Below are positions 1 through 28,909 of a DNA stretch of 32,000 bases, in pieces. The translations under genes were made by a program, and so were the position numbers. A model generated the notes under the pieces. The model was not told the DNA's origin, did no database searches, and saw nothing but the letters and a program-made list of their open reading frames with translations. Where the stretch lies: the NCBI GenBank assembly GCA_015057505.1, contig SVEG01000002.1, positions 147,910 to 179,909 on the forward strand. The letters are read 5' to 3'. Position 1 is the stretch's first letter. Each line of letters opens with the position of its first letter. The DNA is from Lachnospiraceae bacterium. GTDB taxonomy: Bacteria > Bacillota > Clostridia > Lachnospirales > Lachnospiraceae.

Positions 1-55
1 TGTGTAACAACTCACCTAACTTAGAAGCACTTAAAAGTTCATCAAATTTCATCAT
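1..55 (-). CDS. 5' end of an unidentified gene that runs off the left edge (MMKFDELLSASKLGELLH...)
   Basis: ATG at 55 on the complement strand, 5 nt downstream of an AAGGAAGGGG Shine-Dalgarno-like run (61-70). The frame is open to the window edge, and only ~18 codons are visible. Confidence 0.3.
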   Translation of the reverse strand, partial: MMKFDELLSASKLGELLH

Positions 56-209
56 GAACACCCCTTCCTTAATTTCTACGTATAGTATATCATGTATTTT
101 CAAATTTTACTATATCTTTTTGCTTGGCTTTGCATTTTTCTTTTGCGCCGTCAGGTCCGTGTCTGCATAAGCCGCATGTAAGGCACAGTGCGGTAAAATG
201 CGAAACAAG

Positions 210-283
210 AAAAAATTAGATTTGACGCGCTCACAGAAAAAGGAAGCGACTTCGAAGCAGGCATTTACTTTTTCTGGCGCGTC
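210..283 (-). terminator. Candidate intrinsic terminator for the nucleotidyltransferase/pcrA transcript (the long hairpin of repeat copy A read on the minus strand)
   Basis: On the minus strand the 224-283 hairpin is followed by AAATCTAATTTTTT (223-210). The U-run is separated from the stem by about 8 nt, so this is not a textbook terminator. Confidence 0.4.
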
Positions 284-377
284 ACTGACAGAACCACAAG
301 TAGCACAACGTGCTACGACAGACGTGTGAGCGGCTGGGTTCTGGAAGTGTACCTTTTGCTCGACAACTTGGAATTTG
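224..377 (+). repeat. Copy A of a ~150-nt hairpin-rich repeat, in inverted orientation relative to copy B at 1037-1181
   Basis: It aligns by eye along its whole length with the reverse complement of 1037-1181. It contains a long hairpin GACGCGC...GCGCGTC (224-283), a short hairpin AGCAC-AAC-GTGCT (302-314), a CAGACG..GCGGCTG hairpin (~320-336) and a shared AACTTGGAATTTG tail. Confidence 0.75.
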
Positions 378-387
378 TTTACTTGCT

Positions 388-1017
388 TCACGGACAATTT
401 ACTTCGTCCAACTTCTCTATCAATTCACACAAAATAGCGAAGTATTCTAATGGTAATTGATACTGTTCATTAAAGACTTTCAAAAGGTCAACAATGCTAT
501 TCCTATAACTTGCTTTATCAATAAAGATATTACAATTATTAAATATAGCCACCTCGTTTGCTACGCTTACACCTATATCCTGTTTGCCCGATAAGAACTT
601 AATCAAACTCCGATGAAACAAACGAGATATTTGATAGTGCATATCGTCTCTTAAAGAAAAATCTTTACATAGTTTTTCATTTCTACTGTAATGGTATAAC
701 TTAATATCATCAGTATGGAAGAATTCACTATCTGTAATATCTATTTTTTCGATTATTTCCAAATCTACAGCTACGCCATCTTCATAGATAACGATAAGTA
801 TGCCCAACGGTTTATGTGTAAATGATATATACACAGGTTTTCCATAACCATAAATCAGTTCTTTCAAACTTTCAATGTTACAAAAAGCACTTATATCTAC
901 ATCAGAAAACACTGTAGCAGTTCCATTCAAAAACGAACCACTTAACCAAATGTGGCTTTTATTTTCTTCCGCAAATCGCTTAACATATTCAATATACTTT
1001 TGCTGATTGCTCTTCAT
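388..1017 (-). CDS. Pol-beta superfamily nucleotidyltransferase-domain protein, 209 aa. The two-domain architecture resembles KNTase/Lnu/ANT-type nucleotidyltransferases.
   Basis: N-terminal motif LSGSFLNGTATVFSDVDISAF matches G[SG]-x(9-13)-DxD, followed by a helical C-terminal half. GAGGT lies 12 nt upstream of the ATG. The substrate cannot be assigned from sequence alone. Confidence 0.7.
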   Translation of the reverse strand: MKSNQQKYIEYVKRFAEENKSHIWLSGSFLNGTATVFSDVDISAFCNIESLKELIYGYGKPVYISFTHKPLGILIVIYEDGVAVDLEIIEKIDITDSEFFHTDDIKLYHYSRNEKLCKDFSLRDDMHYQISRLFHRSLIKFLSGKQDIGVSVANEVAIFNNCNIFIDKASYRNSIVDLLKVFNEQYQLPLEYFAILCELIEKLDEVNCP

Positions 1018-1036
1018 ATGATAATTTTTACCTCGT

Positions 1037-1181
1037 CAAATTCAAGTTTATCTACCTCTTTCACCTCCAAAATCCAGCCGCTTCGCGTCTGCCGTGCTCC
1101 GCACTTTTGATTTTGTCGGTATCGCGCCAGGAAAAGTAAATACTTGCTTCGCAAGTGCTTCCTTTTCCCTTGAGCGCGATA
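1037..1181 (-). repeat. Copy B of the ~150-nt hairpin-rich repeat. It starts 3 nt after the pcrA stop and forms the 5' UTR of the nucleotidyltransferase gene.
   Basis: Long hairpin TATCGCGC...GCGCGATA (1120-1181) with an inner ACTTGC-GAA-GCAAGT. Short hairpin GTGC-GGA-GCAC (1094-1104, minus-strand sense). CAGACGC-GAA-GCGGCTG hairpin. Tail AACTTGAATTTG. Confidence 0.75.
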
Positions 1182-1183
1182 TA

Positions 1184-3448
1184 CTATAGTTTTTTTAGCT
1201 TTGCAAATGACGCAAATAATTTCTTCACGCCAGCGGTATCGAAATTCACGGTTACCTCGTAATCCCTGCCGCCTTCTACAATAGCTGTTACCATTCCGAC
1301 ACCGAACTTGACGTGGCTTACTGTATCGCCGACCTCATAATCAAGTGCAGCGGCTTTTGTAACAGTAAACTGCTTGGTTTCGTAGGGCTTTCTGTAAAAT
1401 GCATTACGAGCCTCGTTACCGATTGGTGCTGTGGATTCTCCCACAGAACCCGATAATATAAATTTGTCAGTATAACCCCTGTTCTCGGCAGATGCCTGTG
1501 GTCGCTTAGTAATCTTCTCCTCTGCATCTGTAAGATGCGCCGGAACCTCACGAAGGAAACGTGACATCATGTTAAATCTTGTCTCGCCCCTAAGTATTCT
1601 CTGCTTAGCATATGACAGTGTCAAATGCTCTTGTGCACGCGTAATTCCCACATAGCAAAGTCTTCTCTCTTCCTCAATTTCCGCTGTCGCATCTTCTGCA
1701 TTTATTGACATGGAGCTGGGAAACAGCCCTTCTTCAAGACCGCACAGATATACGCAAGGGAATTCAAGTCCTTTGGCACTGTGAAGTGTCATAAGAGTAA
1801 CTCTGTTCTCGGAATCTTCCAGACTATCTATATCAGCAATTAACGATACTTCTTCAAGGAACCCGAACAATGTCGGTTCCTCTGCAGTCTCCTCGTATTC
1901 TTTTATCTTGGTTATCAATTCGTCGATATTCTCGATACGTGCCTCTGCCTCATCACTCATATCAGCCTGAAGCTCGATAAGATATCCTGACTCTTCAACA
2001 ATCGCTTTTGCAAGCTCAGTAAGCGACAAGCTCGCTTTCCTCGCTTTGATTCCCTCTATAAGCTCCACAAAAGGCTTAAGCTTCGCTGCCGCCTTCTTTA
2101 ACGTATCAATCTGTTCTGCCTCTCTAAGCGCCTCATAAAAACTGATATCATGTCGGACCGCATAATCCTGCACTCGTTCTATCGTCGTAGCACCAATGCC
2201 ACGTTTGGGCACATTGATAATACGCCTTACCGCCAAATCATCCCTGCCGCCGTCAACCGTCTTAAGGTATGCGAGAATATCCTTGATTTCTTTACGCTGA
2301 TAGAAGTTAACACCACCGACAAGCTTGTACGGCAGATTCGCCCTTACACACTGCTCCTCTATCGTACGTGACTGTGCATTGGTTCTGTAAAGCACCGCAA
2401 AATCACTGTACGGTCTGAGTTCCTCTCGCACATATTTTTTAATATCGTTAACGATTCGCTCTGCTTCCTCGTATCCATTATTACATGTAAAAATCGCCAG
2501 CTTGTCGCCGTCTTCCTTCTCCGTCCAAAGCGTCTTATCCTTTCTGCCGGAATTATTACGGATAACGCCGTTGGCAGCATTAAGAATATTGGCGGTTGAA
2601 CGGTAATTCTGCTCAAGTCTTATTACCTTTGCGCCCGGATAAGCCTTCTCGAAGTCAAGAATATTGCGGATGTTAGCGCCTCTGAATTTGTAAATTGACT
2701 GGTCATCGTCACCTACCACGCAGAGGTTCTTATATTTTCTGGCAAGGAGCTCAATAAGCTTAAACTGCACTGTATTCGTATCCTGGTACTCGTCAACCAT
2801 TATGTACTTAAAACGATCCTGATAATAGTCAAGCACATCCTCATTATGCAAAAACAAATCCACAGTCTTACAAATCAAATCGTCAAAATCCATGGCATTG
2901 TTTTTCTTAAGTTGCTTCTGATATTCCCTGTAAACCTCCGCAACTTTACGCTTGATAAAATCACCGCCGGCATTTATCTCAAACTCATCCGGCATAATCA
3001 TCTCATCCTTAGCTTTGGAAATCATACCGAGAATAGCTTTCTCACTTAAATGCTTGGTATCAATCTCCATACGCTTACAGATATCCTTCATAAGTGACTT
3101 CTGATCGTCCGTATCATAAATCGTAAAGTTTGTATCAAAACCGAGTCTGTCCGCATATCTTCTTAAAATCCTTACACAGCTTGAATGGAACGTACTTACC
3201 CAGATACTCTCCGCGCCAAAGCTAACAAGTCTGTCAACACGGTCGCGCATCTCGCCTGCAGCCTTATTGGTAAAAGTAATCGCCATGATGTTCCACGGAT
3301 TTACACCCATTTCTTCAATCAAATACGTGATTCTATATGTTAAAACTCGGGTTTTCCCCGAGCCTGCCCCTGCCAGTATCAGAAGCGGCCCTTCTGTATG
3401 AAGGACCGCAGCTTTTTGCATGGCATTCAATTGTTCATAAATGCTCAT
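1184..3448 (-). CDS. pcrA: ATP-dependent DNA helicase PcrA (UvrD/Rep superfamily 1A)
   Basis: Walker A AGAGSGKTRVLT, motif II VDEYQDTN, and TFHS, QNYRS and TLMTLHSAKGLEF motifs. The C-terminal Tudor-like tail (GDTVSHVKFGVGMV) is typical of PcrA. 754 aa. AGGAAG RBS 8 nt upstream. Confidence 0.95.
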   Translation of the reverse strand: MSIYEQLNAMQKAAVLHTEGPLLILAGAGSGKTRVLTYRITYLIEEMGVNPWNIMAITFTNKAAGEMRDRVDRLVSFGAESIWVSTFHSSCVRILRRYADRLGFDTNFTIYDTDDQKSLMKDICKRMEIDTKHLSEKAILGMISKAKDEMIMPDEFEINAGGDFIKRKVAEVYREYQKQLKKNNAMDFDDLICKTVDLFLHNEDVLDYYQDRFKYIMVDEYQDTNTVQFKLIELLARKYKNLCVVGDDDQSIYKFRGANIRNILDFEKAYPGAKVIRLEQNYRSTANILNAANGVIRNNSGRKDKTLWTEKEDGDKLAIFTCNNGYEEAERIVNDIKKYVREELRPYSDFAVLYRTNAQSRTIEEQCVRANLPYKLVGGVNFYQRKEIKDILAYLKTVDGGRDDLAVRRIINVPKRGIGATTIERVQDYAVRHDISFYEALREAEQIDTLKKAAAKLKPFVELIEGIKARKASLSLTELAKAIVEESGYLIELQADMSDEAEARIENIDELITKIKEYEETAEEPTLFGFLEEVSLIADIDSLEDSENRVTLMTLHSAKGLEFPCVYLCGLEEGLFPSSMSINAEDATAEIEEERRLCYVGITRAQEHLTLSYAKQRILRGETRFNMMSRFLREVPAHLTDAEEKITKRPQASAENRGYTDKFILSGSVGESTAPIGNEARNAFYRKPYETKQFTVTKAAALDYEVGDTVSHVKFGVGMVTAIVEGGRDYEVTVNFDTAGVKKLFASFAKLKKL

Positions 3449-15233: not shown

Positions 15234-15397
15234 TATTTTTTGATTTGATATTTTGCATATAATACCTAGTTTGTGAAATACTAATTTTATAATTTACCCA
15301 CAATTTCATTACTATTTTAAGGGAATATTTGCCTTAACTATTGACTTTTCCCTTATTTTATATTACTATTCAAGGGAAAGAGAGGTGTCATAAGGGA

Positions 15398-16444
15398 ATG
15401 AGACCATTTAACTATTCAGATTTAAAAGAACAAAAGTGGGATTCTGATATCCTCAGGCTTATCGCTGCTATCTATAAAGAAGCCGGAAAACAGGAAATGT
15501 ATTTGAAACAAAGACCTGAAGAATCAGAAAAGCTTGTAGAAATAGCAAAAATTCAAAGTACCGAAGCTTCCAATGCCATTGAAGGTATTGTTACTACCAG
15601 TACCCGAATCAGGCAGCTTGTGGAAGAAAAGACTACACCGAAAAACCGTGATGAACAGGAAATTGCCGGCTACCGTGATGTACTTAACATCATCCATGAG
15701 AATTTCGATGCAATTCCTTTGTCGCAAAATTATATCTTGCAATTTCACAAGATTATGTACAGCCATATGAATAACCCGATGGCAGGACGTACTAAAAATA
15801 CACAAAACTACATCACAGCCAAATATTCGGACGGACATGTGGAAACCATTTTTACACCACTTGCTCCTTACGAAACACCGGAAGCACTAAACAGAATCTG
15901 CGAAGAATATAATCGTGTCATCGGAAACATGGAAGTAGAACCGCTCATTGCCATTCCTATCTTTATTCATGATTTTCTCTGCATACACCCATTCAATGAT
16001 GGCAACGGCAGAATGAGCAGGCTACTTACTACACTGCTCTTATATCGAAATGGTTTTTACGTAGGGAAATATATATCGTTGGAAGCAAAGATTGCTAAGA
16101 ATAAAGATCTTTACTATGATGCTCTTAACCGCTCACAAGACAAATGGCACGAAGGATGCGAAGATGCACTTCCCTTCGTTAAATATTTTCTTGGAATTGT
16201 ACTTGCTGCATATAAGGATTTTGAAGACAGATTTGCCATTGTAGAAAAAAAGCTCCCTGCCATAGAAATGGTACGCAAAGCTACATTAAATAAGATAGGC
16301 AGATTTACCAAGCAGGATATCCGAGAATTATGTCCTTCTTTAAGCATCAGCTCCATTGAAGGCTCACTTCGTAAAATGGTGGCAGCCGGAGAACTGAAAC
16401 GTGAGGGGTCCGGAAAATCCACTTACTATTTTCGACTAAAATAA
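15398..16444 (+). CDS. Fic-family protein (AMPylase-type) with an N-terminal inhibitory helix motif and a C-terminal winged-helix-like tail
   Basis: Fic motif HPFNDGNGRMSR. Inhibitory motif SNAIEG, matching (S/T)xxxE(G/N). I preferred the ATG at 15398 (GAGAGGTG upstream) over the TTG at 15341. Confidence 0.9.
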   Translation: MRPFNYSDLKEQKWDSDILRLIAAIYKEAGKQEMYLKQRPEESEKLVEIAKIQSTEASNAIEGIVTTSTRIRQLVEEKTTPKNRDEQEIAGYRDVLNIIHENFDAIPLSQNYILQFHKIMYSHMNNPMAGRTKNTQNYITAKYSDGHVETIFTPLAPYETPEALNRICEEYNRVIGNMEVEPLIAIPIFIHDFLCIHPFNDGNGRMSRLLTTLLLYRNGFYVGKYISLEAKIAKNKDLYYDALNRSQDKWHEGCEDALPFVKYFLGIVLAAYKDFEDRFAIVEKKLPAIEMVRKATLNKIGRFTKQDIRELCPSLSISSIEGSLRKMVAAGELKREGSGKSTYYFRLK

Positions 16445-22250: not shown

Positions 22251-25055
22251 TTATTTTTTCATTCGGTTGAGAAGCTGGGAGGTATCAAGTCTCTCCTGTG
22301 TGGGTTCTTTCTTCGCCGCCTTCTTCTCTTTCTTATCAGTTTTTTCCGAAGAACTCTTCTTACTCTTTGCAAAACCTGTCTCCGCCTTATCGGCAGTAAT
22401 CATATCCACTGCCGGAGCAGTTTTCTTAGAATTCTTACCTGACTTGGCCGCACTCTCTGCCTTCTTCTCTGCTCTCGCCTGAGCCCATGCCTTAAGCTTT
22501 GCTATCGGCAGATACTCAAGCAGATTGATGCGGAAACGTCTGATTGCTATGTCCGCGATAAAAAGTATCGCCGCCAGAACAAGTAGAAACGTTCCAAGCT
22601 CTGTTCTCTGTTTAACCATATCAAGTTCTTCATCAAAAACTTCATTTGCGACGGTAATCATATTACCGCCGACCGCTTTTGTATATTCCTCCAGAACTGT
22701 GGTTTCCTCATAAAAACGATACTCAAGCGAATACTGCATCATCGTTGCAGTATTAATGCTTCCGATAGTCTCGCCGTTCTCCTTCTGCTGAAGATTGATG
22801 CTGTAAACTCCCGTACCCTCCATCTCAAAGTCCGTCGTATATACGCCGGGCGTTACAGGGTCAAGCGTTACAACCTTGGACTGACCGTTATCATCGTAAA
22901 TTGTAGCCTGAACGCTAGTTGATGCGTTAAAATCTTCCGTCACAAATTTTATCGTGGCAGTCTTGCCGTTTTGCTCAACCTCGGCATACGCACCGTCCAT
23001 TCCCATGTCTGTAGTTATATACTGTATAAGATTATACCACAATCTTGATGTTTTGTCCCATCCTGCCCAGTTGGCAGACCAATTATTTTTTACATCGGAG
23101 GTCCATGCAACAGTTTTACCAAGTCCGTACTGCCAACAGCACAAAAGCGGATCACCTTCAGAGGACTGCAAAAGCTGCGTGGCCCTTGCTTTTCTCGTCG
23201 TCGCCACATATCCAAAAAGTGACGGCAGACCGTTTTCTGCCACAGAGCTTATCATTTCGTCATTAGATGTTACAATCGGTACAAAATTACCGTCCACAAG
23301 ATAAGAGTTAACCGACAAAAATACCTCCTGCGCAAAAATACGCGGGATATCCGAATCTATATCCGTATAATAAAAACGTCCGCCGCATTCCTCGGCAAGC
23401 ATGTTAAGAAGTGTCTGGTTACATCCCTGTCCTACCGCTACCGTTGAAAGTGTAATCTGACCGTTATTAATTCTGTTAATAACCTTGGGATAATTATTAT
23501 ATGTGTCCTGTCCGTCGGTAAGCAAAATAATATGCTTTACCTTGGCAGGATTTTTCTCAAGTGAAACTGTTGCCGCTTCAAGTGCCGGATATATCGAAGT
23601 TCCGCCACCAAGCTCTATTGAATATATTGCATCCTCGATTGCCCCACGGTCAGATGCCTTTTGAAGCTTAACTATCTCCTGATAACCGTCATCAAATGCC
23701 ACTACACCTATATAATCCGTATCTCTTAAGTTATCAAGTGCCGCTGCCGCCGCCTGCTTTGCAAGGTCGAGATTCGTTATTACACCATTGCCGTCCGACA
23801 TACTTCCCGACTTATCAATTACCATCATAATCGCCATCGTCGGAATCTCGTTTTCGCCCTGAAGGTCCATATCTACGGGAAGCACTGTTTCAAGTGCCGT
23901 ATCCTTATAATTACCGAGTGCATAACTGTTGTTACCTCCCGTAGTTATAAAGCCTCCGCCGTAATCCTTTACATAGGCCTCAATATTCTCCATAAAGCCT
24001 TCTCGCAAATCATCGGCATATACATTTACAAAAACAATTCCAGCGTACTGGTTCATCTCTGAAAGGCTTCCCGGAGCCGTCACCGGCTGTACAACCTGAT
24101 AGCGCACCTGAATACTGTCCAGCACCTTTACAAATTCCGAAGACTCTCCTGCCGTTCCTTCTACAATAAGAATCGGCTTACGTGTAGAAATATTGGTATA
24201 CGCGAGATACTCATTATTGGCAGTTATTGTATCTTCCTCTGCATCCACCTGTACACGATATGTCTTTAAGCCTTCCTCCGACTGAGTATCCTTAAATACA
24301 AAAGTATTAACGCCCTTTTGCAGATTTACCTTCTGCTGTCCTTTAAGGGTTCTTCCTGAATACAAGCTGACTGTTGCCGGACTTGCCACGTTACTTTCAA
24401 TCTTAACCGTAATTGTAAAGTTCTCACCTGTTCCGACACTGTCAGGAACGGAAATATCGCTTACACACACTTCGGCACTGCTTCCCGTCTCCATTTTTAC
24501 TACCTCGACAAGACATTTGGAAGTTGCAACCGAAGAAATCGTATTTTTAAGATTGCCTTCATTCTCAACACCGTCCGTCAAAAGCACGATACGTTTTGCC
24601 GAATCCTCCGGCATCATCGCAAGTGCCATCGTAACCGCACCTTCAAGATTGGTCGCGGTCTTCGTGACATCAGTCTGAAATTCTGAAAAGGTTATCTCTT
24701 CAGACACAAACTGCTCTACCTTTGCATCGCTTCCGAACGCCACAACACCGATGCTGTCATCGCCCGATTTTTCCTTAATTGCATCATTTACAAAGTGAAG
24801 CAGTTCGTCTCCGTTTTCCTTCATGCTGTCCGATATATCAAGCAGGAAAACTGTAGATACTGCACTGCCTTTCCACTTCATGCTTACACCGCTGAGCGCC
24901 AAAATAAGAAGCATAGCAATAAGTGCACGCACACTAATCTGCAAAACTCTGTGTGCCTTGTTTTTAACAAACATATATTTTGCAGAGAATATTAACAAAC
25001 CGATAACTATCGGTATTCCTATCAAAACTAAAGGTCTGGAAAATTCTATGTTCAT
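22251..25055 (-). CDS. Large membrane-anchored protein with two von Willebrand factor A domains, a GATase1-like middle domain and a Lys-rich C-terminal tail (BatB-like), 934 aa
   Basis: N-terminal TM pair like the BatA N-terminal domain. MIDAS motifs VFLLDISDSM and MMVIDKSGSM. The middle segment ILIVEGTAGES...GGGFITTGG resembles the DUF1355/class-I amidotransferase-like fold. A C-terminal TM is followed by a KKxxKK-rich tail. Confidence 0.75.
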   Translation of the reverse strand: MNIEFSRPLVLIGIPIVIGLLIFSAKYMFVKNKAHRVLQISVRALIAMLLILALSGVSMKWKGSAVSTVFLLDISDSMKENGDELLHFVNDAIKEKSGDDSIGVVAFGSDAKVEQFVSEEITFSEFQTDVTKTATNLEGAVTMALAMMPEDSAKRIVLLTDGVENEGNLKNTISSVATSKCLVEVVKMETGSSAEVCVSDISVPDSVGTGENFTITVKIESNVASPATVSLYSGRTLKGQQKVNLQKGVNTFVFKDTQSEEGLKTYRVQVDAEEDTITANNEYLAYTNISTRKPILIVEGTAGESSEFVKVLDSIQVRYQVVQPVTAPGSLSEMNQYAGIVFVNVYADDLREGFMENIEAYVKDYGGGFITTGGNNSYALGNYKDTALETVLPVDMDLQGENEIPTMAIMMVIDKSGSMSDGNGVITNLDLAKQAAAAALDNLRDTDYIGVVAFDDGYQEIVKLQKASDRGAIEDAIYSIELGGGTSIYPALEAATVSLEKNPAKVKHIILLTDGQDTYNNYPKVINRINNGQITLSTVAVGQGCNQTLLNMLAEECGGRFYYTDIDSDIPRIFAQEVFLSVNSYLVDGNFVPIVTSNDEMISSVAENGLPSLFGYVATTRKARATQLLQSSEGDPLLCCWQYGLGKTVAWTSDVKNNWSANWAGWDKTSRLWYNLIQYITTDMGMDGAYAEVEQNGKTATIKFVTEDFNASTSVQATIYDDNGQSKVVTLDPVTPGVYTTDFEMEGTGVYSINLQQKENGETIGSINTATMMQYSLEYRFYEETTVLEEYTKAVGGNMITVANEVFDEELDMVKQRTELGTFLLVLAAILFIADIAIRRFRINLLEYLPIAKLKAWAQARAEKKAESAAKSGKNSKKTAPAVDMITADKAETGFAKSKKSSSEKTDKKEKKAAKKEPTQERLDTSQLLNRMKK

Positions 25056-25074
25056 ACCCTTCTCTTTTCCGGCA

Positions 25075-26886
25075 TTATCTTCTGATGTACACTATCCATT
25101 CAATGCACAAAAGAATCAGTGCCAATATAATTATTACATTACGCAAGTTAAGCGATGAGTTAACCGTAGCCTGCACAACCGATGTCCCTGCCTCCAAGCT
25201 GCCACCCGGAGTGTTCTGTATGAAGCTTTCGTTTTTAGGGAAATTAACCGCAAAAACTTCCGAAAGCTTCTCACCGTCCGCATTCTGCTCCACCTCATAC
25301 ACACCGGTTTCATTAGTACCTGTATAATTTACTATCGTTCCGACAAGCTCCTCATTCTTGCCGTCAGGACGCTCTATAACAGGTTTTGCCCCGTCTATCT
25401 TACCGCTTACCTTTATTGCACTTCCGGCATTTACAACAGAGGCTGAAAGCATACCTGTGCTAACGCACTCATTCATAATATTGTAAATAAGTATCGGGAA
25501 TTCTGATTTAAGCGGAAGCTCCGTATCATGAAAATCCATACCGAGCACACATACCTGCTGTGTCCCGTAAGTTCCGATAAAGCCCGCACTGAAATTACCT
25601 GCCGTAAGGAAGCTGTCAGCCCAGCCCGGGACTTCCATGGCCTTGACCTTGCTTGCGCCAAAGCTGTAATCCTCAAGATACTTTGTAACCTTGCTGTCCT
25701 TAACCTTTAAAAGTATTCCTTCCAGTGTGTCCGCAACCGTATAAAGCTCCGGACATTCACAGTTTATAAATAGCATACTGCCATTCTTCGGAAGCTCCGC
25801 AGGAACCATTCCGTCAAAAACATACAAGTCATACTCCTGACTCAAAAAATCTTTAAATCCGTCTATGTCATTGGACTTGGTAACTTTTACCCCATCCATA
25901 AGCGCCATCGCTTTTTCAAGATAAAGGTTCTGCTCCGTCATAAGAAGCACGTTACACTCGGATGCCTCTGTAATTACATCATAGCATCCGTTATCAAGAG
26001 TAAGTGCGTCCTTCACGTCATGAAGCTCTGCATAAATAACCTTACCGTCAAATGCAAGATTTTCAAAATATACTATCTCACTGTCGCCCGAAGGAATCGT
26101 AACCTCCTTAACGGCAAGCATCTCATCATCACCGTAAAGATTGATATCCGTCTTAAGCTCCTTACTTCCAAAGTTAGAAACCTTCGCAAGAACCGTAAGC
26201 ATTCCCTCGCTGTCCGTACCGTGACCGACATACTCCACCACAGCATTATCCTGCTCTGAGTAAACATCAACGATATAACCGCCCGTAGTTTTACAGGATA
26301 CATATGTATCCGTAAAATATACTACCTCTGCCGACTCCCACTGCGCTATCATGGACTCTGCCATTTCCATACCAAACGAGCAGTCACCCATGTAGTTTGT
26401 GGCCTCTATCGCATTTAAACGCCTTTTTGCGAGACTTTTATCAACAGAGTCTGTAAGTACAAGCACCGCCTCTTTATCGCTCGTAATAATCGAAATCGAC
26501 GTATCTCCGGGCAATTTATCAACATAATCAATTGCCTCTGACACCGCAACTTCCATCCTTGTATGTCCGTCGTCATATTTTGTATTCATACTGCCGCTCG
26601 TATCAAGCACAAGCACAACATGTCCCGCACTCGTTGTCTCCGACTTGATATACGGCGACATAAGCGCAAAAATAAGTATAAGTACCGTTGCAATTTGCAA
26701 ATACATAAGGAGATTTTTCTTGAGCTTCTCCCAAGGAGTATTTGCCTGCATGTTCTTATACATTTCCTTCCACAAGAAAAGCGACGAAAACGGATGGTCC
26801 ACCGCTTTTTGCTTAAGAAGGTACATTATTATGATAATAGGTATTAAAACCAGCAATGCCAAAGGCCATAAATATAAAAATTTCAT
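25075..26886 (-). CDS. BatA-like membrane protein with a VWA domain, 603 aa
   Basis: Aerotolerance-regulator-type N-terminus MKFLYLWPLALLVLIPIIIIMYLL...PFSSLFLW. MIDAS motif VLVLDTSGSM. C-terminal TM. AGGAGAA RBS. Confidence 0.75.
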   Translation of the reverse strand: MKFLYLWPLALLVLIPIIIIMYLLKQKAVDHPFSSLFLWKEMYKNMQANTPWEKLKKNLLMYLQIATVLILIFALMSPYIKSETTSAGHVVLVLDTSGSMNTKYDDGHTRMEVAVSEAIDYVDKLPGDTSISIITSDKEAVLVLTDSVDKSLAKRRLNAIEATNYMGDCSFGMEMAESMIAQWESAEVVYFTDTYVSCKTTGGYIVDVYSEQDNAVVEYVGHGTDSEGMLTVLAKVSNFGSKELKTDINLYGDDEMLAVKEVTIPSGDSEIVYFENLAFDGKVIYAELHDVKDALTLDNGCYDVITEASECNVLLMTEQNLYLEKAMALMDGVKVTKSNDIDGFKDFLSQEYDLYVFDGMVPAELPKNGSMLFINCECPELYTVADTLEGILLKVKDSKVTKYLEDYSFGASKVKAMEVPGWADSFLTAGNFSAGFIGTYGTQQVCVLGMDFHDTELPLKSEFPILIYNIMNECVSTGMLSASVVNAGSAIKVSGKIDGAKPVIERPDGKNEELVGTIVNYTGTNETGVYEVEQNADGEKLSEVFAVNFPKNESFIQNTPGGSLEAGTSVVQATVNSSLNLRNVIIILALILLCIEWIVYIRR

Positions 26887-26900
26887 GGTTTTCTCCTATC

Positions 26901-27767
26901 CTATGCCAATCTTGAAAGTGTTCCGAAGAATATACTGTCGAGGCTTTCATCCGACATTACGCGAAGATAAGACGCCGCATATTTTCTCGAAACCGTATCA
27001 ATATGATTTATGAAATCATTGTAGTTACTCTTGTATTCCTTATCAAGCGCACTGCTCATAGTTATCCGCATACCGGCATTTGTCTCGCTGTCGAGAAGAT
27101 TAAGAGTTCCTTCAAGTCCCGGATTTACCTCCTCGGGCGAAAGCACCTGTATTAGAATAACCTCCTGCTTACTGAAGGTCAGGTATTTTAAAATGTCTTC
27201 AAGATTTTCGGTATAAAAATCTGAAATAACTATCGAAACGCCGCGCTGCTTGATATTGCTTCTTTTGATGCATGAAAGCAAATCTGCCTCACCATCAAAA
27301 TTAATCTGTTCGAGTCTCTCTATCGTCTTCGCAAAGGCCTGACGTCCCGTCACTCCCTTATGTACGGTAAGTCCGTTCCCCTGCATTATATTAAGAATAA
27401 GACGATCCGAGTTCTCAAGCACACAATATGAAAGTGCCGCGGCAATTCTCTGTGCGCATACTGATTTGGCCTTTTCACCGAAATCCATGGACTTGCTTCC
27501 GTCCACGAATATCCTGAAAACGCCTTCTTTTTCCTCCATAAAAAGCTTTACAAAAAGCCTGTCAAATCTGCCATAAGCATTCCAGTCAATTCTTCTGATA
27601 TCGTCACCGAGTATGTACTCGCGAAAATCCGAAAACTCTACGGAATTACCCTTGGCATTGGACTTCCTTCCGCCATTCATACCTGCGGCAAGACGCATCT
27701 TCATGGACATTCTGAAGGTATTTAATTTGTGATAAAACTCAGCATTAAAAATCTTTTCGTCTGCCAT
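26901..27767 (-). CDS. DUF58-family protein (MoxR-associated)
   Basis: Signature FREYILGDDIRRIDWNAYGRFDRLFVKLFMEEKE. 288 aa. AGGAG RBS. Confidence 0.85.
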   Translation of the reverse strand: MADEKIFNAEFYHKLNTFRMSMKMRLAAGMNGGRKSNAKGNSVEFSDFREYILGDDIRRIDWNAYGRFDRLFVKLFMEEKEGVFRIFVDGSKSMDFGEKAKSVCAQRIAAALSYCVLENSDRLILNIMQGNGLTVHKGVTGRQAFAKTIERLEQINFDGEADLLSCIKRSNIKQRGVSIVISDFYTENLEDILKYLTFSKQEVILIQVLSPEEVNPGLEGTLNLLDSETNAGMRITMSSALDKEYKSNYNDFINHIDTVSRKYAASYLRVMSDESLDSIFFGTLSRLA

Positions 27768-27836
27768 ATAACTACTACTCCTGCTCTTTTTGTACTGTCA
27801 GTGTTTACTACTGTACAGTACATAACATATTTTATC

Positions 27837-28817
27837 TTACATTTCGATGCTCTCGATTATCTTGGTGATAATCTCGTCCGTCGTAATTCCGTCAGCAAGC
27901 GCTTCAAAGCCCGGCATTATACGATGTCTGAGTGCCGGATATGCCACTGCCTTGATATCCTCGAATGCTACATTGGCTCTGCCTTCGATAAGCGCACGCG
28001 CTTTTGCCGTCTGGAAAATAGCCTGTGCAGCTCTGGGGCTCGCACCGCAGGAAACGTACTTTTTAACATAGTCGGTAGCTGTCGCAAGCTCGGGATGTGT
28101 TGCCACAACAAGCTTAAGCGCATACTCCTGTACCGCATCTGCGATAGGCATGTCTCTTATCACATTACGCATGCGGATAATATCCTCGCCGTTAATTATT
28201 GCGTTAATCTCTGTCTTTTTATTCGTTACCGTAATATCCATGATTTCCTTAAGCTCTTCAAGTGTAGGGAAATCCACATGAATCTTAAAAATAAAACGGT
28301 CAAGCTGTGCCTCAGGCAGAGGATATGTTCCCTCATTCTCGATAGGGTTCTGTGTTGCAAGAACCATGTAAGGTTCGGGCATCGGATAAGTCTGCTTTCC
28401 GACCGTAACTGTCTTCTCCTGCATCGCCTCAAGAAGCGCAGACTGTGTCTTCGGAGTCGCACGGTTAATCTCGTCCGCAAGTACGATATTTGCAAACACG
28501 GGACCGGGCTCAAACTTAAATACGTTCTGTCCGTCTTCCTTTACGATAAGGTTCGTACCTGTAACGTCCGCAGGCATAAGGTCAGGCGTAAACTGAATTC
28601 TTGAAAACTGAATATCAAAAACCTTCGCTATTGTTTTTACAAGCTGTGTCTTACCAAGACCGGGCACACCTTCAAGGAGTACGTTACCATTGGTAAGCAT
28701 CGCAAGAATAACCTGTCTTATTACATCCTTCTGACCGATAATCGCCTTTCCGATTTCAGCCTCGCAGGCTTTAACTTTCTCTATTATTTCCCTTAAATCA
28801 TTTTCGTTCTGTATCAT
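27837..28817 (-). CDS. MoxR-family AAA+ ATPase
   Basis: Walker A LLEGVPGLGKT, Walker B IVLADEINRATPKTQSALLEAMQE, and ATQNPIE..GTYPLPEAQLDRF. I preferred the ATG at 28817 (AGAGGA 7 nt upstream) over the GTG at 28844. Confidence 0.9.
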   Translation of the reverse strand: MIQNENDLREIIEKVKACEAEIGKAIIGQKDVIRQVILAMLTNGNVLLEGVPGLGKTQLVKTIAKVFDIQFSRIQFTPDLMPADVTGTNLIVKEDGQNVFKFEPGPVFANIVLADEINRATPKTQSALLEAMQEKTVTVGKQTYPMPEPYMVLATQNPIENEGTYPLPEAQLDRFIFKIHVDFPTLEELKEIMDITVTNKKTEINAIINGEDIIRMRNVIRDMPIADAVQEYALKLVVATHPELATATDYVKKYVSCGASPRAAQAIFQTAKARALIEGRANVAFEDIKAVAYPALRHRIMPGFEALADGITTDEIITKIIESIEM

Positions 28818-28909
28818 TACATATCCTCTCTTTCTATACTTCACATAAGTGTTTACAAAATCTACGGCTGTGCACCGATTAATATGTTATAATTTAAATC
28901 CTCAAATTA

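Follow-up and report, generated by a model that had tools for sequence, protein, structure and literature searches.

A 1,067-bp insertion behind pcrA in a Lachnospiraceae genome joins a nucleotidyltransferase gene to two inverted, structured repeat units

Directly downstream of pcrA in a Lachnospiraceae genome, a nucleotidyltransferase (NTase) gene lies between two diverged, hairpin-rich repeats in inverted orientation. The locus raises the question of whether the gene and its repeats arrived as a mobile cassette, form an invertible segment or an mRNA with complementary ends, or arose by local duplication of the end of pcrA. It was analysed within a stretch of 32,000 nucleotides (32 kb), referred to here as the window, and by comparison with related and metagenomic loci.

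The repeat pair was assessed by local alignment of 195–385(+) against the reverse complement of 1030–1212, which matched 199–377(+) to the reverse complement of 1037–1205 with 72% identity (131 matches in 182 columns) and a score of 69. Control scores were well below this value, with a mean of 10.6 and a maximum of 17 for 300 shuffles, a maximum of 17 for 400 random window segments, and 14 for the direct orientation. The inverted pair that the initial annotation had placed at 224–377 and 1037–1181 is therefore real, with outer limits that were drawn too narrowly, as similarity reaches 199 and 1205. Of the blocks listed as shared, GGAAAAGGAAGC is exact in copy B only, the block common to both copies being AAAAGGAAGC, and copy B lies 2 nt, rather than 3 nt, from the pcrA stop codon (1184–1186). 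The described contrast in base composition is borne out: G+C is 0.50–0.53 for the units, 0.316 for the NTase ORF and 0.407 for the whole window (by part, 0.32 in the gene and approximately 0.50 in the units, against a genome value of 0.41).

Relatives reveal that the downstream region of pcrA is polymorphic in presence and absence, filled in the window and empty in a sister lineage (L033/L034), in which pcrA is followed by 54 nt and an 80-aa gene, with a single TATAGTA. The sister lineage and the window share pcrA products that are 98% identical in amino acid sequence and flanks that are approximately 92–94% identical in nucleotides; the outgroups L035–L037 likewise have no insertion. Comparison of these sequences identifies 115–1181, a segment of 1,067 bp, as an insertion relative to the sister lineage and the outgroups. 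The 7-bp sequence TACTATA, a direct repeat, flanks it at 108–114 and 1182–1188, the second copy overlapping the pcrA stop codon. A target-site duplication had been reported as not found; it is present, outside the left boundary that had been assumed. The features of the cassette and its flanks are as follows.

1–57 (minus strand): start of the host 80-aa gene, from gene calls in L029/L033, which directly follows pcrA in the empty-site lineage; the host flank comprises position 107 and below.
108–114: direct-repeat copy 1, TACTATA (TATAGTA on the gene strand), the attR-side core, from comparison with the empty site of L033/L034.
115–138 (minus strand): tail, the distal part of the copy B 5′ extension, AAAATGCAAAGCCAAGCAAAAAGA on the minus strand, matching 195–223 in the circular-junction alignment and the repeat search.
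139–194: 56-nt spacer, the predicted loop between head-to-head arms in a circularised form, from the circular-junction alignment and fold.
195–223 (plus strand): 5′ extension of copy A, ending in the A/T-rich core-like motif AAATTAGATTTGA, from alignments.
224–352 (plus strand): copy A of the structured unit, with P1 at approximately 224–283 and a three-way junction at approximately 284–348, from R1 score, fold and covariation.
353–383 (plus strand): linker and core motif AACTTGGAATTTG; the same stretch forms the conserved 3′ flank of the NTase module (minus strand: CAAATTCCAAGTT).
388–1017 (minus strand): NTase gene, 209 aa, a pol-beta-fold nucleotidyltransferase with a helical C-terminal domain, from PF01909, the motif and AlphaFold2.
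1018–1052 (minus strand): 5′ flank of the NTase gene, comprising the core AAACTTGAATTTGAC, a GAGG ribosome-binding site and a spacer, which travels with the gene between genomes.
1059–1181 (minus strand): copy B of the structured unit, with P1 at approximately 1180–1121 and a three-way junction at approximately 1120–1063, from R1 score, fold and boundary.
1182–1188: direct-repeat copy 2, TACTATA, the attL-side core, containing the pcrA stop codon at 1184–1186.
1184–3448 (minus strand): pcrA, 754 aa, the host gene with its 3′ end as insertion target, from the ORF and Pfam families.

The cassette comprises three parts that differ in G+C content and have separate histories: the NTase gene, the two inverted units that are approximately 25% diverged, and a 109-bp spacer plus tail. 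The outer end of copy B coincides exactly with the insertion end at 1181, and copy A begins 109 bp inside the left boundary (80 bp with its extension); the sequences at the termini, 115 and 1181, show no inverted-repeat relation to each other. The BLAST segments of the two junctions overlap by 14 nt, reflecting imperfect similarity beyond the 7-mer, and the tail at 115–138 resembles the last codons of pcrA. The spacer at 139–194 on its own has no significant structure. The NTase gene is the sole credible ORF inside the insertion, and no recombinase or transposase genes were detected in the 32-kb window. Of the proposed passenger cassette bounded by long terminal inverted repeats, the moved cassette with a direct repeat, an empty site and no transposase holds; the mobile insertion cassette (MIC) with long terminal repeats does not, because copy A is 109 bp internal, the ends are not inverted repeats and the NTase gene moves without the repeats. 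The cassette resembles MICs and cis-mobilizable elements (CIMEs), but it does not have the long repeats as termini.

The unit comprises approximately 125 nt, or approximately 185 nt with its 5′ extension. Three shared hairpins had been proposed; the likeness of the two copies stands, the common form being a long P1 hairpin followed by a three-way junction with two small hairpins. The middle hairpin retains pairing with different stem sequences, as described (GTAGCAC/GTGCTAC at 300–316 and GTGC/GCAC at 1094–1104). Predicted folding energies are −51.1 kcal/mol for copy A (z −2.6) and −50.7 kcal/mol for copy B (z −4.9), and the sense strands of A and B fold at −51 and −50.7 kcal/mol versus −40 and −44 kcal/mol for the antisense strands. 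The covariance model R1 scores copy A at 118.5 bits and copy B at 141.1 bits; the apex of P1 is partly broken in copy A. Covariation across the family, whose absence had been listed as a refuting outcome, is present: among 43 consensus pairs, with 97.7% of cells paired, 14 carry double (compensatory) changes, compared with 5.8 ± 1.6 in shuffles and 0–2 in slid controls. On one strand the G·U pairs do not vary, with three such positions in P1, and single-sided changes pass through G·U. Within the unit, nucleotide conservation is highest in the stems, above that of junctions and loops.

The unit has copies beyond this locus, all in unrelated metagenomic contexts: L038, L041/L057 and a remnant in L040. 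With these copies, the presence/absence polymorphism and the covariation, none of the refuting outcomes named in the initial annotation applies. One metagenome scan with a 19-nt pattern returned eight matches, of which five are attributable to chance and three places are genuine; the 32-kb window contributes two copies and approximately 70 related loci contribute none, and the known family amounts to four full-length units and one remnant. Copies elsewhere reach 90% identity. L041 and L057 share one sequence up to the end of the unit, and immediately beyond it they diverge. In four of the five copies the orientation is that of the upstream gene; one copy is antisense to all nearby genes. The unit stands immediately before a cargo ORF here (NTase) and in L038 (GNAT), and between a stop codon and a terminator in L041; in L038 an IS630-family transposase gene lies approximately 210 nt upstream of the unit, which is outside the IS630-like gene. 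Rfam 15 gave no match in the whole window at gathering thresholds, nothing for both units at E ≤ 10, and nothing for L038, L040, L041 and L057 at E ≤ 0.1. BLASTN of the units against 28 NTase loci returned chance matches only, six viral-contig scans that included the predicted circle junction gave no match, and the unit was unmatched in plasmid and phage collections. The repeats belong to a family of folded DNA/RNA elements that is small, had not been described before and occurs at the junctions of mobile DNA in gut Clostridia.

The NTase belongs to Pfam PF01909, with a catalytic-type motif, G-S...D-x-D, that is invariant in 21 homologues, and its AlphaFold2 model has a pLDDT of 92. The best fold matches in the PDB are LinB, ANT(6), CD-NTase and poly(A) polymerases, all of low TM-score, with LinB as the top Foldseek match (TM-score 0.3–0.4). 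NCBIfam assigned no Lnu or ANT family, and a PDB profile search returned ANT alone, at E = 0.09; both the sequence (NCBIfam) and the fold (TM-score 0.3–0.4) place the protein outside the characterised Lnu/ANT families. PADLOC matched it to no defence system. Two unrelated contexts contain close relatives, one with NTase DNA that is 98% identical (L001) and one with an identical protein (L053), and in both the similarity is confined to approximately 354/368–1052 of the window and no unit is present. An identical NTase is also carried by 14 blocks of contigs shorter than 2 kb. Judging from these alignments, the NTase gene moves between genomes without the repeats. R1 scans found the structured unit absent from approximately 70 other loci with NTase homologues, and the unit is therefore not a general regulator of the NTase gene. 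Homologues occur in tight same-strand arrays with junctions of 12–60 nt. A promoter-like TTGAAT-16-TATCAT in the 5′ flank was rejected as the NTase promoter; it cannot serve this ORF because it abuts the ATG.

How the parts came together is suggested by circular permutation. When the insertion ends are joined, the tail, TATAGTA and unit B align through the junction with 195–377, and the permuted 430 nt are predicted to fold into one long hairpin; the arm restored in this way is continuous, which suggests that a circle integrated at the 7-bp core. We see an even chance that the whole model holds, with the diverged inverted units and a promiscuous NTase module forming a 1,067-bp non-autonomous mobile cassette that integrated as a circle. 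The cassette would once have been a circle of approximately 1.07 kb, with its two units head to head around the 56-nt spacer. Integration would have occurred by conservative site-specific recombination between the 7-bp core TATAGTA in the 5′ extension of unit B and a look-alike at the end of pcrA, with the recombinase supplied in trans. The predicted circle junction is AAGCAAAAAGA-TATAGTA-TATCGCGCTC, and excision would restore the empty site as CTATAGTAAAATTT. The inverted arrangement may have arisen because the NTase gene carries a quasi-palindromic core at both ends in opposite orientation, and the NTase would be expressed by read-through from pcrA across unit B. Contig scans found neither the circular junction nor a second insertion site of the whole cassette. 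Against the circle model, the 32-kb window contains no recombinase or transposase, the family is so far very small, the 7-bp direct repeat would equally be left by a DDE transposase, and the strand-specific G·U folding and the co-orientation of four of the five copies fit RNA at least as well as single-stranded DNA.

In the same model, the units and the core motifs AAAYTTGAATTTG flanking each module would act in cis as junction or recombination structures for joining modules. Breakpoints between modules fall in this A/T-rich motif, which is strong around the NTase gene and the units, and weak or absent before many other array genes; as a general junction signal of arrays it is consequently borne out in part only. 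It is not enriched in the window and overlaps ribosome-binding regions, which, with its A/T-richness, counts against the model.

The strand preference of the fold bears on the reading that the unit works mainly at the RNA level, as a folded cis-acting leader, intercistronic element or 3′ UTR element. In that role it would govern how the mRNA of neighbouring cargo genes is processed, translated or kept stable, and would hitch-hike with those genes, copy A being incidental or a decaying antisense copy. The insertion is real under this reading as well. We regard this reading as possible, although on the unlikely side. It accounts for the better folding of the sense strand, the three invariant G·U positions of P1 with single-sided changes through G·U, the shared orientation of four of the five copies with the upstream gene, the location directly before cargo ORFs or, in L041, between stop codon and terminator, and the lower R1 score (118 versus 141 bits) and partly broken P1 apex of copy A. 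However, no Rfam family appears even at E ≤ 10, conservation peaks in the stems rather than in junctions and loops, the unit ends are DNA breakpoints, the unit is missing from 70-odd other NTase-homologue loci, and one copy is antisense to every nearby gene. A classic MIC- or MITE-like element is improbable; in that case a DDE transposase supplied in trans would recognise either the long inverted repeats or short sequences at the termini, and its action would leave the 7-bp duplication. The direct repeat with its empty site, the cargo between inverted repeats without an internal transposase and the IS630-family gene near the unit in L038 would fit such an element, but IS630-type elements duplicate TA rather than 7 bp, the true termini are not inverted repeats, copy A is 109 bp internal, and the arms are approximately 25% diverged. 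The resemblance of the tail to the end of pcrA beyond the 7-mer and the continuity of the arm over the circular junction are also unexpected for cut-and-paste transposition.

Two roles for the arms as a pair had been proposed, long-range pairing of the 5′ and 3′ UTRs of the NTase mRNA, with double-stranded RNA/RNase III control, and a DNA inversion switch between the arms; we consider both very improbable as the selected feature. The inter-arm duplex, predicted at −180 kcal/mol versus −104 kcal/mol for the arms folded separately, is still thermodynamically possible, but the arms, which are approximately 72–75% identical, differ at approximately 25–28% of positions, the differences being compensated inside each arm and not between arms, and outside this locus the unit is found as a single copy. 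Nine contigs assembled from different samples match one another with 0 mismatches, and all have one orientation, which argues against an invertible segment. The loose likeness of the outward flank of copy A (195–223) to the end of pcrA might have suggested a neutral inverted duplication, made locally from the terminator or 3′ region native to pcrA; this reading is refuted, with practically no probability left to it. Neither copy is present in the outgroups or in the empty-site lineage, which shows that copy B is no native part of the pcrA 3′ sequence; copies of 90% identity occur in unrelated contexts, and the flank of copy A is closer to the tail of the element than to pcrA. Three further candidates were set aside: a bridge RNA of the IS110-like type, as the internal loops of the unit are too small for guide segments and the only ORF is the NTase; single-stranded DNA transposition of the IS200/IS605 or REP-RAYT type, which fits the strand bias but leaves no target duplication, whereas one is present here, and is not preferred; and an origin of the spacer and tail from an NTase neighbour gene in L005/L003, where a 16-nt exact match (128–143) has no extension in DNA or protein and was taken as chance.

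Integration of a circle, the preferred reading, can be set beside known systems. MICs carry a passenger gene without a transposase, surrounded by inverted repeats and a target-site duplication (PMC3913671), features that the cassette has in common with MIC231 of Bacillus cereus and mic-qnrD. Their repeats are approximately 24–50 bp, terminal and common with the parent IS, whereas here they are approximately 150–185 nt and folded, with one lying 109 bp from the end, and a search of the 32-kb window for a parent IS gave none. CIMEs, considered here together with other att-flanked non-autonomous integrative elements of Firmicutes, are defined by the lack of integration and transfer genes and by directly repeated att-like cores as flanks (PMC6323972). 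The cassette resembles them in both respects, in the empty attB of its relatives, in integration at the 3′ end of a conserved housekeeping gene that is left intact, and in the likeness of the element side of the core to the target. Unlike CIMEs, it is only 1.07 kb with one cargo gene, and most of its non-coding DNA consists of a pair of long inverted units with internal structure, a feature not known from CIMEs. No cognate ICE, IME or integrase is known for a site at the end of pcrA.

With integron cassettes the element shares a putative circle of approximately 1 kb and a single promoterless resistance-like ORF. As in attC, the site is an imperfect palindrome in which structure and strand, not sequence alone, appear conserved, and integration would split the palindrome near the hairpin base (230–108 in the circular form). 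By inspection, however, there are no GTTRRRY/RYYYAAC boxes at 108–230 or at the circular junction, where ATCTAAT and ATATAGT occur without GTT; the target is the 3′ end of a gene; and the same-strand NTase arrays, although similar to integron arrays, have junctions of 12–60 nt, too short for attC. No IntI/attI counterpart was evident, with no tyrosine recombinase in the window or among the genes called in NTase arrays. Integrons are said to have been reported absent from Firmicutes by Cury et al. in 2016. A bolder proposal, which we consider improbable, is that AAAYTTGAATTTG and the unit are the cis sites of an unrecognised cassette-exchange system of gut and rumen Clostridia, a functional analogue of integron attC/attI recombination. 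Small circles, each with a single-gene module (NTase, GNAT, APH, methyltransferases and others), would be cut out and would enter arrays or sites behind housekeeping stop codons, with the folded single strand of the unit as substrate. REP/REPIN, BOX, RUP and Correia elements are similar to the unit as short non-coding, hairpin-rich sequences just past stop codons, single or in inverted doublets, conserved across unrelated loci and probably co-transcribed into mRNAs. These families have tens to hundreds of copies per genome, compared with two in 32 kb and a handful in metagenomes here, and the unit is larger, has a three-way junction and has no identified RAYT or IS partner.

The locus provides a dated, base-resolved case of a resistance-like modification gene joined to the essential pcrA operon in uncultured rumen and hindgut Lachnospiraceae, with filled site, empty site and junctions known. 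The structured element is new, its covariation is real, and it marks DNA junctions. The R1 model and the junction sequence can be used as probes for genome-wide and read-level surveys. If the unit is an RNA, it would be a new cis-acting motif tied to mobile cargo; if it is a recombination substrate, it would point to a mechanism for shuffling cassettes in Firmicutes, a phylum with no known integrons.

ORF calling on the minus strand of the window gave pcrA (1184–3448) and a 209-amino-acid nucleotidyltransferase (NTase). The elements of the locus, in window coordinates, are:

108–114 and 1182–1188: 7-bp direct repeat (core), TACTATA on the plus strand; the pcrA stop codon lies inside the second copy
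115–138: tail
139–194: 56-nt spacer
224–352, plus strand: copy A of the structured unit
388–1017, minus strand: NTase gene
1059–1181, minus strand: copy B of the structured unit

Sequence comparison of filled and empty sites shows that a non-autonomous cassette of 1,067 bp has entered at the stop codon of pcrA and is flanked by the 7-bp repeat. All contigs with an identical pcrA also have the block, and the nine of these that were compared are identical base for base, in a single orientation. In two Logan contigs (L033 and L034), with PcrA 98% identical and flanking DNA 92–94% identical to the window, the pcrA stop is followed by 54 nt and then directly by an 80-amino-acid gene whose start corresponds to window position 57. 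The more distant loci L035–L037 (PcrA 71–73% identical) also lack the block, and the filled state is therefore derived. The junctions place the insertion at window positions 115–1181:

Empty site (L033 and L034): ...AAAAAAAC-TATAGTA-AAATTTAAAAATAC...
Window, pcrA side: ...AAAAAAAC-TATAGTA-TATCGCGCTC...
Window, far side: ...AAGCAAAAAGA-TATAGTA-AAATTTGAAAATAC...

The initial annotation had found no target-site duplication, as the interval that it reported stops 95 bp short of the left boundary. The empty site refutes the null explanation, a local duplication of the pcrA terminator. No recombinase, transposase or phage genes were found in the 32-kb window, the rest of which (for example, 15341–16444, plus strand, and 22251–28844, minus strand) is ordinary chromosome, including genes for a Fic/DOC protein, a sigma-70 family protein and a rhamnogalacturonan lyase, and a BatA/VWA/DUF58/MoxR operon. 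A second small indel lies close to the pcrA locus: relative to contig L029 (9108–9116), the empty-site lineage has approximately 715 bp of extra DNA (L033 4335–5049), which is absent from the lineage of the window, lies past an RNA methyltransferase gene and encodes a 109-residue HTH_3 protein and a 101-residue ORF.

The inverted repeat noted earlier was recovered by local alignment of 199–377 (plus strand) with the reverse complement of 1037–1205 (131 of 182 columns matching, score 69), with controls reaching at most 17 in 300 shuffles, at most 17 in 400 random window segments and 14 in direct orientation. Both copies share one architecture, in which P1, a long hairpin, leads into a three-way junction that carries two small hairpins, and the strand that folds more stably is plus for copy A and minus for copy B (−51.1 and −50.7 kcal/mol; complements −40.3 and −43.9 kcal/mol). 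The G+C contrast likewise holds (units approximately 50%, NTase ORF 31.6%, window 40.7%). The 32-kb window contains only these two copies, and an Rfam search of the units returned no family match. The middle hairpin of copy A (300–316) exceeds that of copy B by 6 nt; read along the NTase (minus) strand, it precedes a T-rich run, TTGTGGTTCT, and the gene has no other terminator-like site downstream. A 95-amino-acid ORF at 110–397 (minus strand), annotated in public assemblies (for example, L029 7052–7339), crosses copy A and the tail in antisense orientation, has no family match and is probably spurious.

The unit also occurs at DNA junctions other than the cassette. A single scan of metagenomes, for which the query was a 19-nt block, yielded three true relatives:

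L038: full unit, approximately 90% identical to copy B, between an IS630-like transposase gene with its terminator and a GNAT gene
L041: unit whose start falls inside an SDR gene's stop codon, with an intrinsic terminator behind it
L040: remnant with an internal deletion, downstream of a pepF terminator

The L038 unit is in sense orientation relative to both neighbours; AAAAACTTGAATTTGG and a ribosome-binding site come after it. Relatives of the SDR gene at 88% identity lack the unit. Of the five copies, four have the same orientation as the gene upstream. A second assembly of the SDR locus, L057, is identical to L041 through the unit and diverges immediately past it, the split (L041 3019–3050 versus L057 2395–2424) falling exactly after ...GAGCATAAG. 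The L057 sequence beyond, GTGCGACGGGC, of which just 31 nt are available, looks like a group II intron 5′ end and has no Rfam match; a class-C-type insertion behind a stem-loop is one possibility.

Five members of the family are known, four of them full-length units and the fifth a remnant. The RNAalifold consensus of the full units has 43 pairs, with 97.7% of pair cells paired and both-sided changes in 14 pairs (5.8 ± 1.6 in column shuffles; 0–2 with slid partners). Covariation is seen at the P1 base (GA...TC versus AT...AT) and apex (CTTGC/GCAAG versus CGCC/GGCG), and at three P1 positions every one of the four sequences has G·U. Together, the covariation and invariant G·U pairs suggest that the fold is selected, on one strand, although statistics from just four sequences are indicative rather than definitive.

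The gene between the units has a separate history. The repeat is absent from 28 genome loci and further metagenome loci encoding NTase homologues, and DNA similarity of homologue loci to the window is limited to approximately 354/368–1052, that is, the ORF with about 30 nt on each side, reaching 98% identity in L001. The conserved flanks, 5′ AAAYTTGAATTTGACGAGG...ATG and 3′ ...GTAAACAAATTCCAAKTT, are inverted look-alikes of each other. The shared ends of the module (1031–1052 and 359–383; L001, L053 and L005) carry an inverted repeat of 7 perfect bp, GAATTTG...CAAATTC, nested in an imperfect one of 12–13 bp, and breakpoints of between-locus similarity cluster there. A third context, L053, encodes an identical NTase protein with its own terminator; upstream of the gene (2140–2335) are two GC-rich REP-like hairpin repeats, GTAGGGGCG...CGCCCCTAC. 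Sequence comparison thus shows the cassette to be an independently mobile NTase module plus two diverged inverted copies of the unit.

The usual NTase setting is a tight same-strand array with GNAT, APH, methyltransferase and kinase-like genes. These arrays (L005 1–6833; L001; L003; L046–L050; L063–L074) have intergenic gaps of 12–60 nt, encode small modification enzymes (methyltransferases, GNAT, APH, P-loop kinase-like, GyrI-like, DUF218) and vary in gene content among otherwise near-identical contigs; they look cassette-like, but they lack spacers of attC size and none of their called genes encodes an integrase. The NTase has the invariant G-S...D-x-D motif of pol-β-fold NTases and a confident structure model (pLDDT 92), whose closest solved folds are LinB, ANT(6), CD-NTases and poly(A) polymerases, at TM-scores of only 0.3–0.4. 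A defence-system search gave no match. The NTase is an active-looking enzyme of the small-molecule-modifying type. It has no usable promoter of its own, and its transcription therefore probably reads through unit B from pcrA.

The true ends of the insertion (115 and 1181) are not inverted repeats. When they are joined, tail (138 to 115), TATAGTA and copy B align across the junction with 195–377:

AAAATGC-AAAGCCAAGCAAAAAGATATAGTATAT / AAAATGCGAAA--CAAG-AAAAA-AT-TAG-ATTTGA

Circular permutation sets the units head to head around the 56-nt spacer, and the permuted 430 nt are predicted to fold as one long imperfect hairpin (−192 kcal/mol). The core falls within the 5′ extension of unit B, and the element-side sequence beside it (GCAAAGCCAAGCAAAAAGA) resembles the last pcrA codons (GCAAAGCTAAAAAAAC), which produces a 14-nt overlap between two BLAST segments. 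This pattern is to be expected of conservative site-specific recombination between attP and a look-alike attB, and less so of cut-and-paste transposition. A search of a viral collection did not find the free circle junction.

The passenger cassette proposed initially stands as to mobility, but its architecture does not: the termini are not formed by the long repeats, and the cargo travels independently of them. An invertible segment is not supported, with no orientation polymorphism in nine contigs and arms too low in identity. A duplex between the two UTRs is predicted to be thermodynamically possible; however, where the arms differ, the compensating change lies within the same arm, and the unit also occurs singly elsewhere, so that intra-unit structure is the conserved feature. 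We consider it about evenly balanced whether, as a whole, the following account holds: the cassette would have moved as a circle, with a site-specific recombinase supplied in trans; the units and their flanking A/T-rich cores would be cis-acting junction structures; and a quasi-palindromic core at both ends of the NTase gene would explain the inverted arrangement. The main rival, that the selected function of the unit is as RNA, seems rather unlikely to us; the two accounts are not mutually exclusive.

Among known systems, a CIME or other att-flanked hitch-hiker is closest in working to the cassette (PMC6323972). MICs are partly alike in working (PMC3913671), but the cassette lacks their terminal inverted repeats, and it differs from integrons in that GTTRRRY boxes and IntI are both absent. 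In position and form the unit is like structured repeats of the REP/REPIN/BOX type, but, on the two copies in the 32-kb window and the three further places in the metagenome scan, it does not match them in copy number. The structured unit represents an undescribed family.
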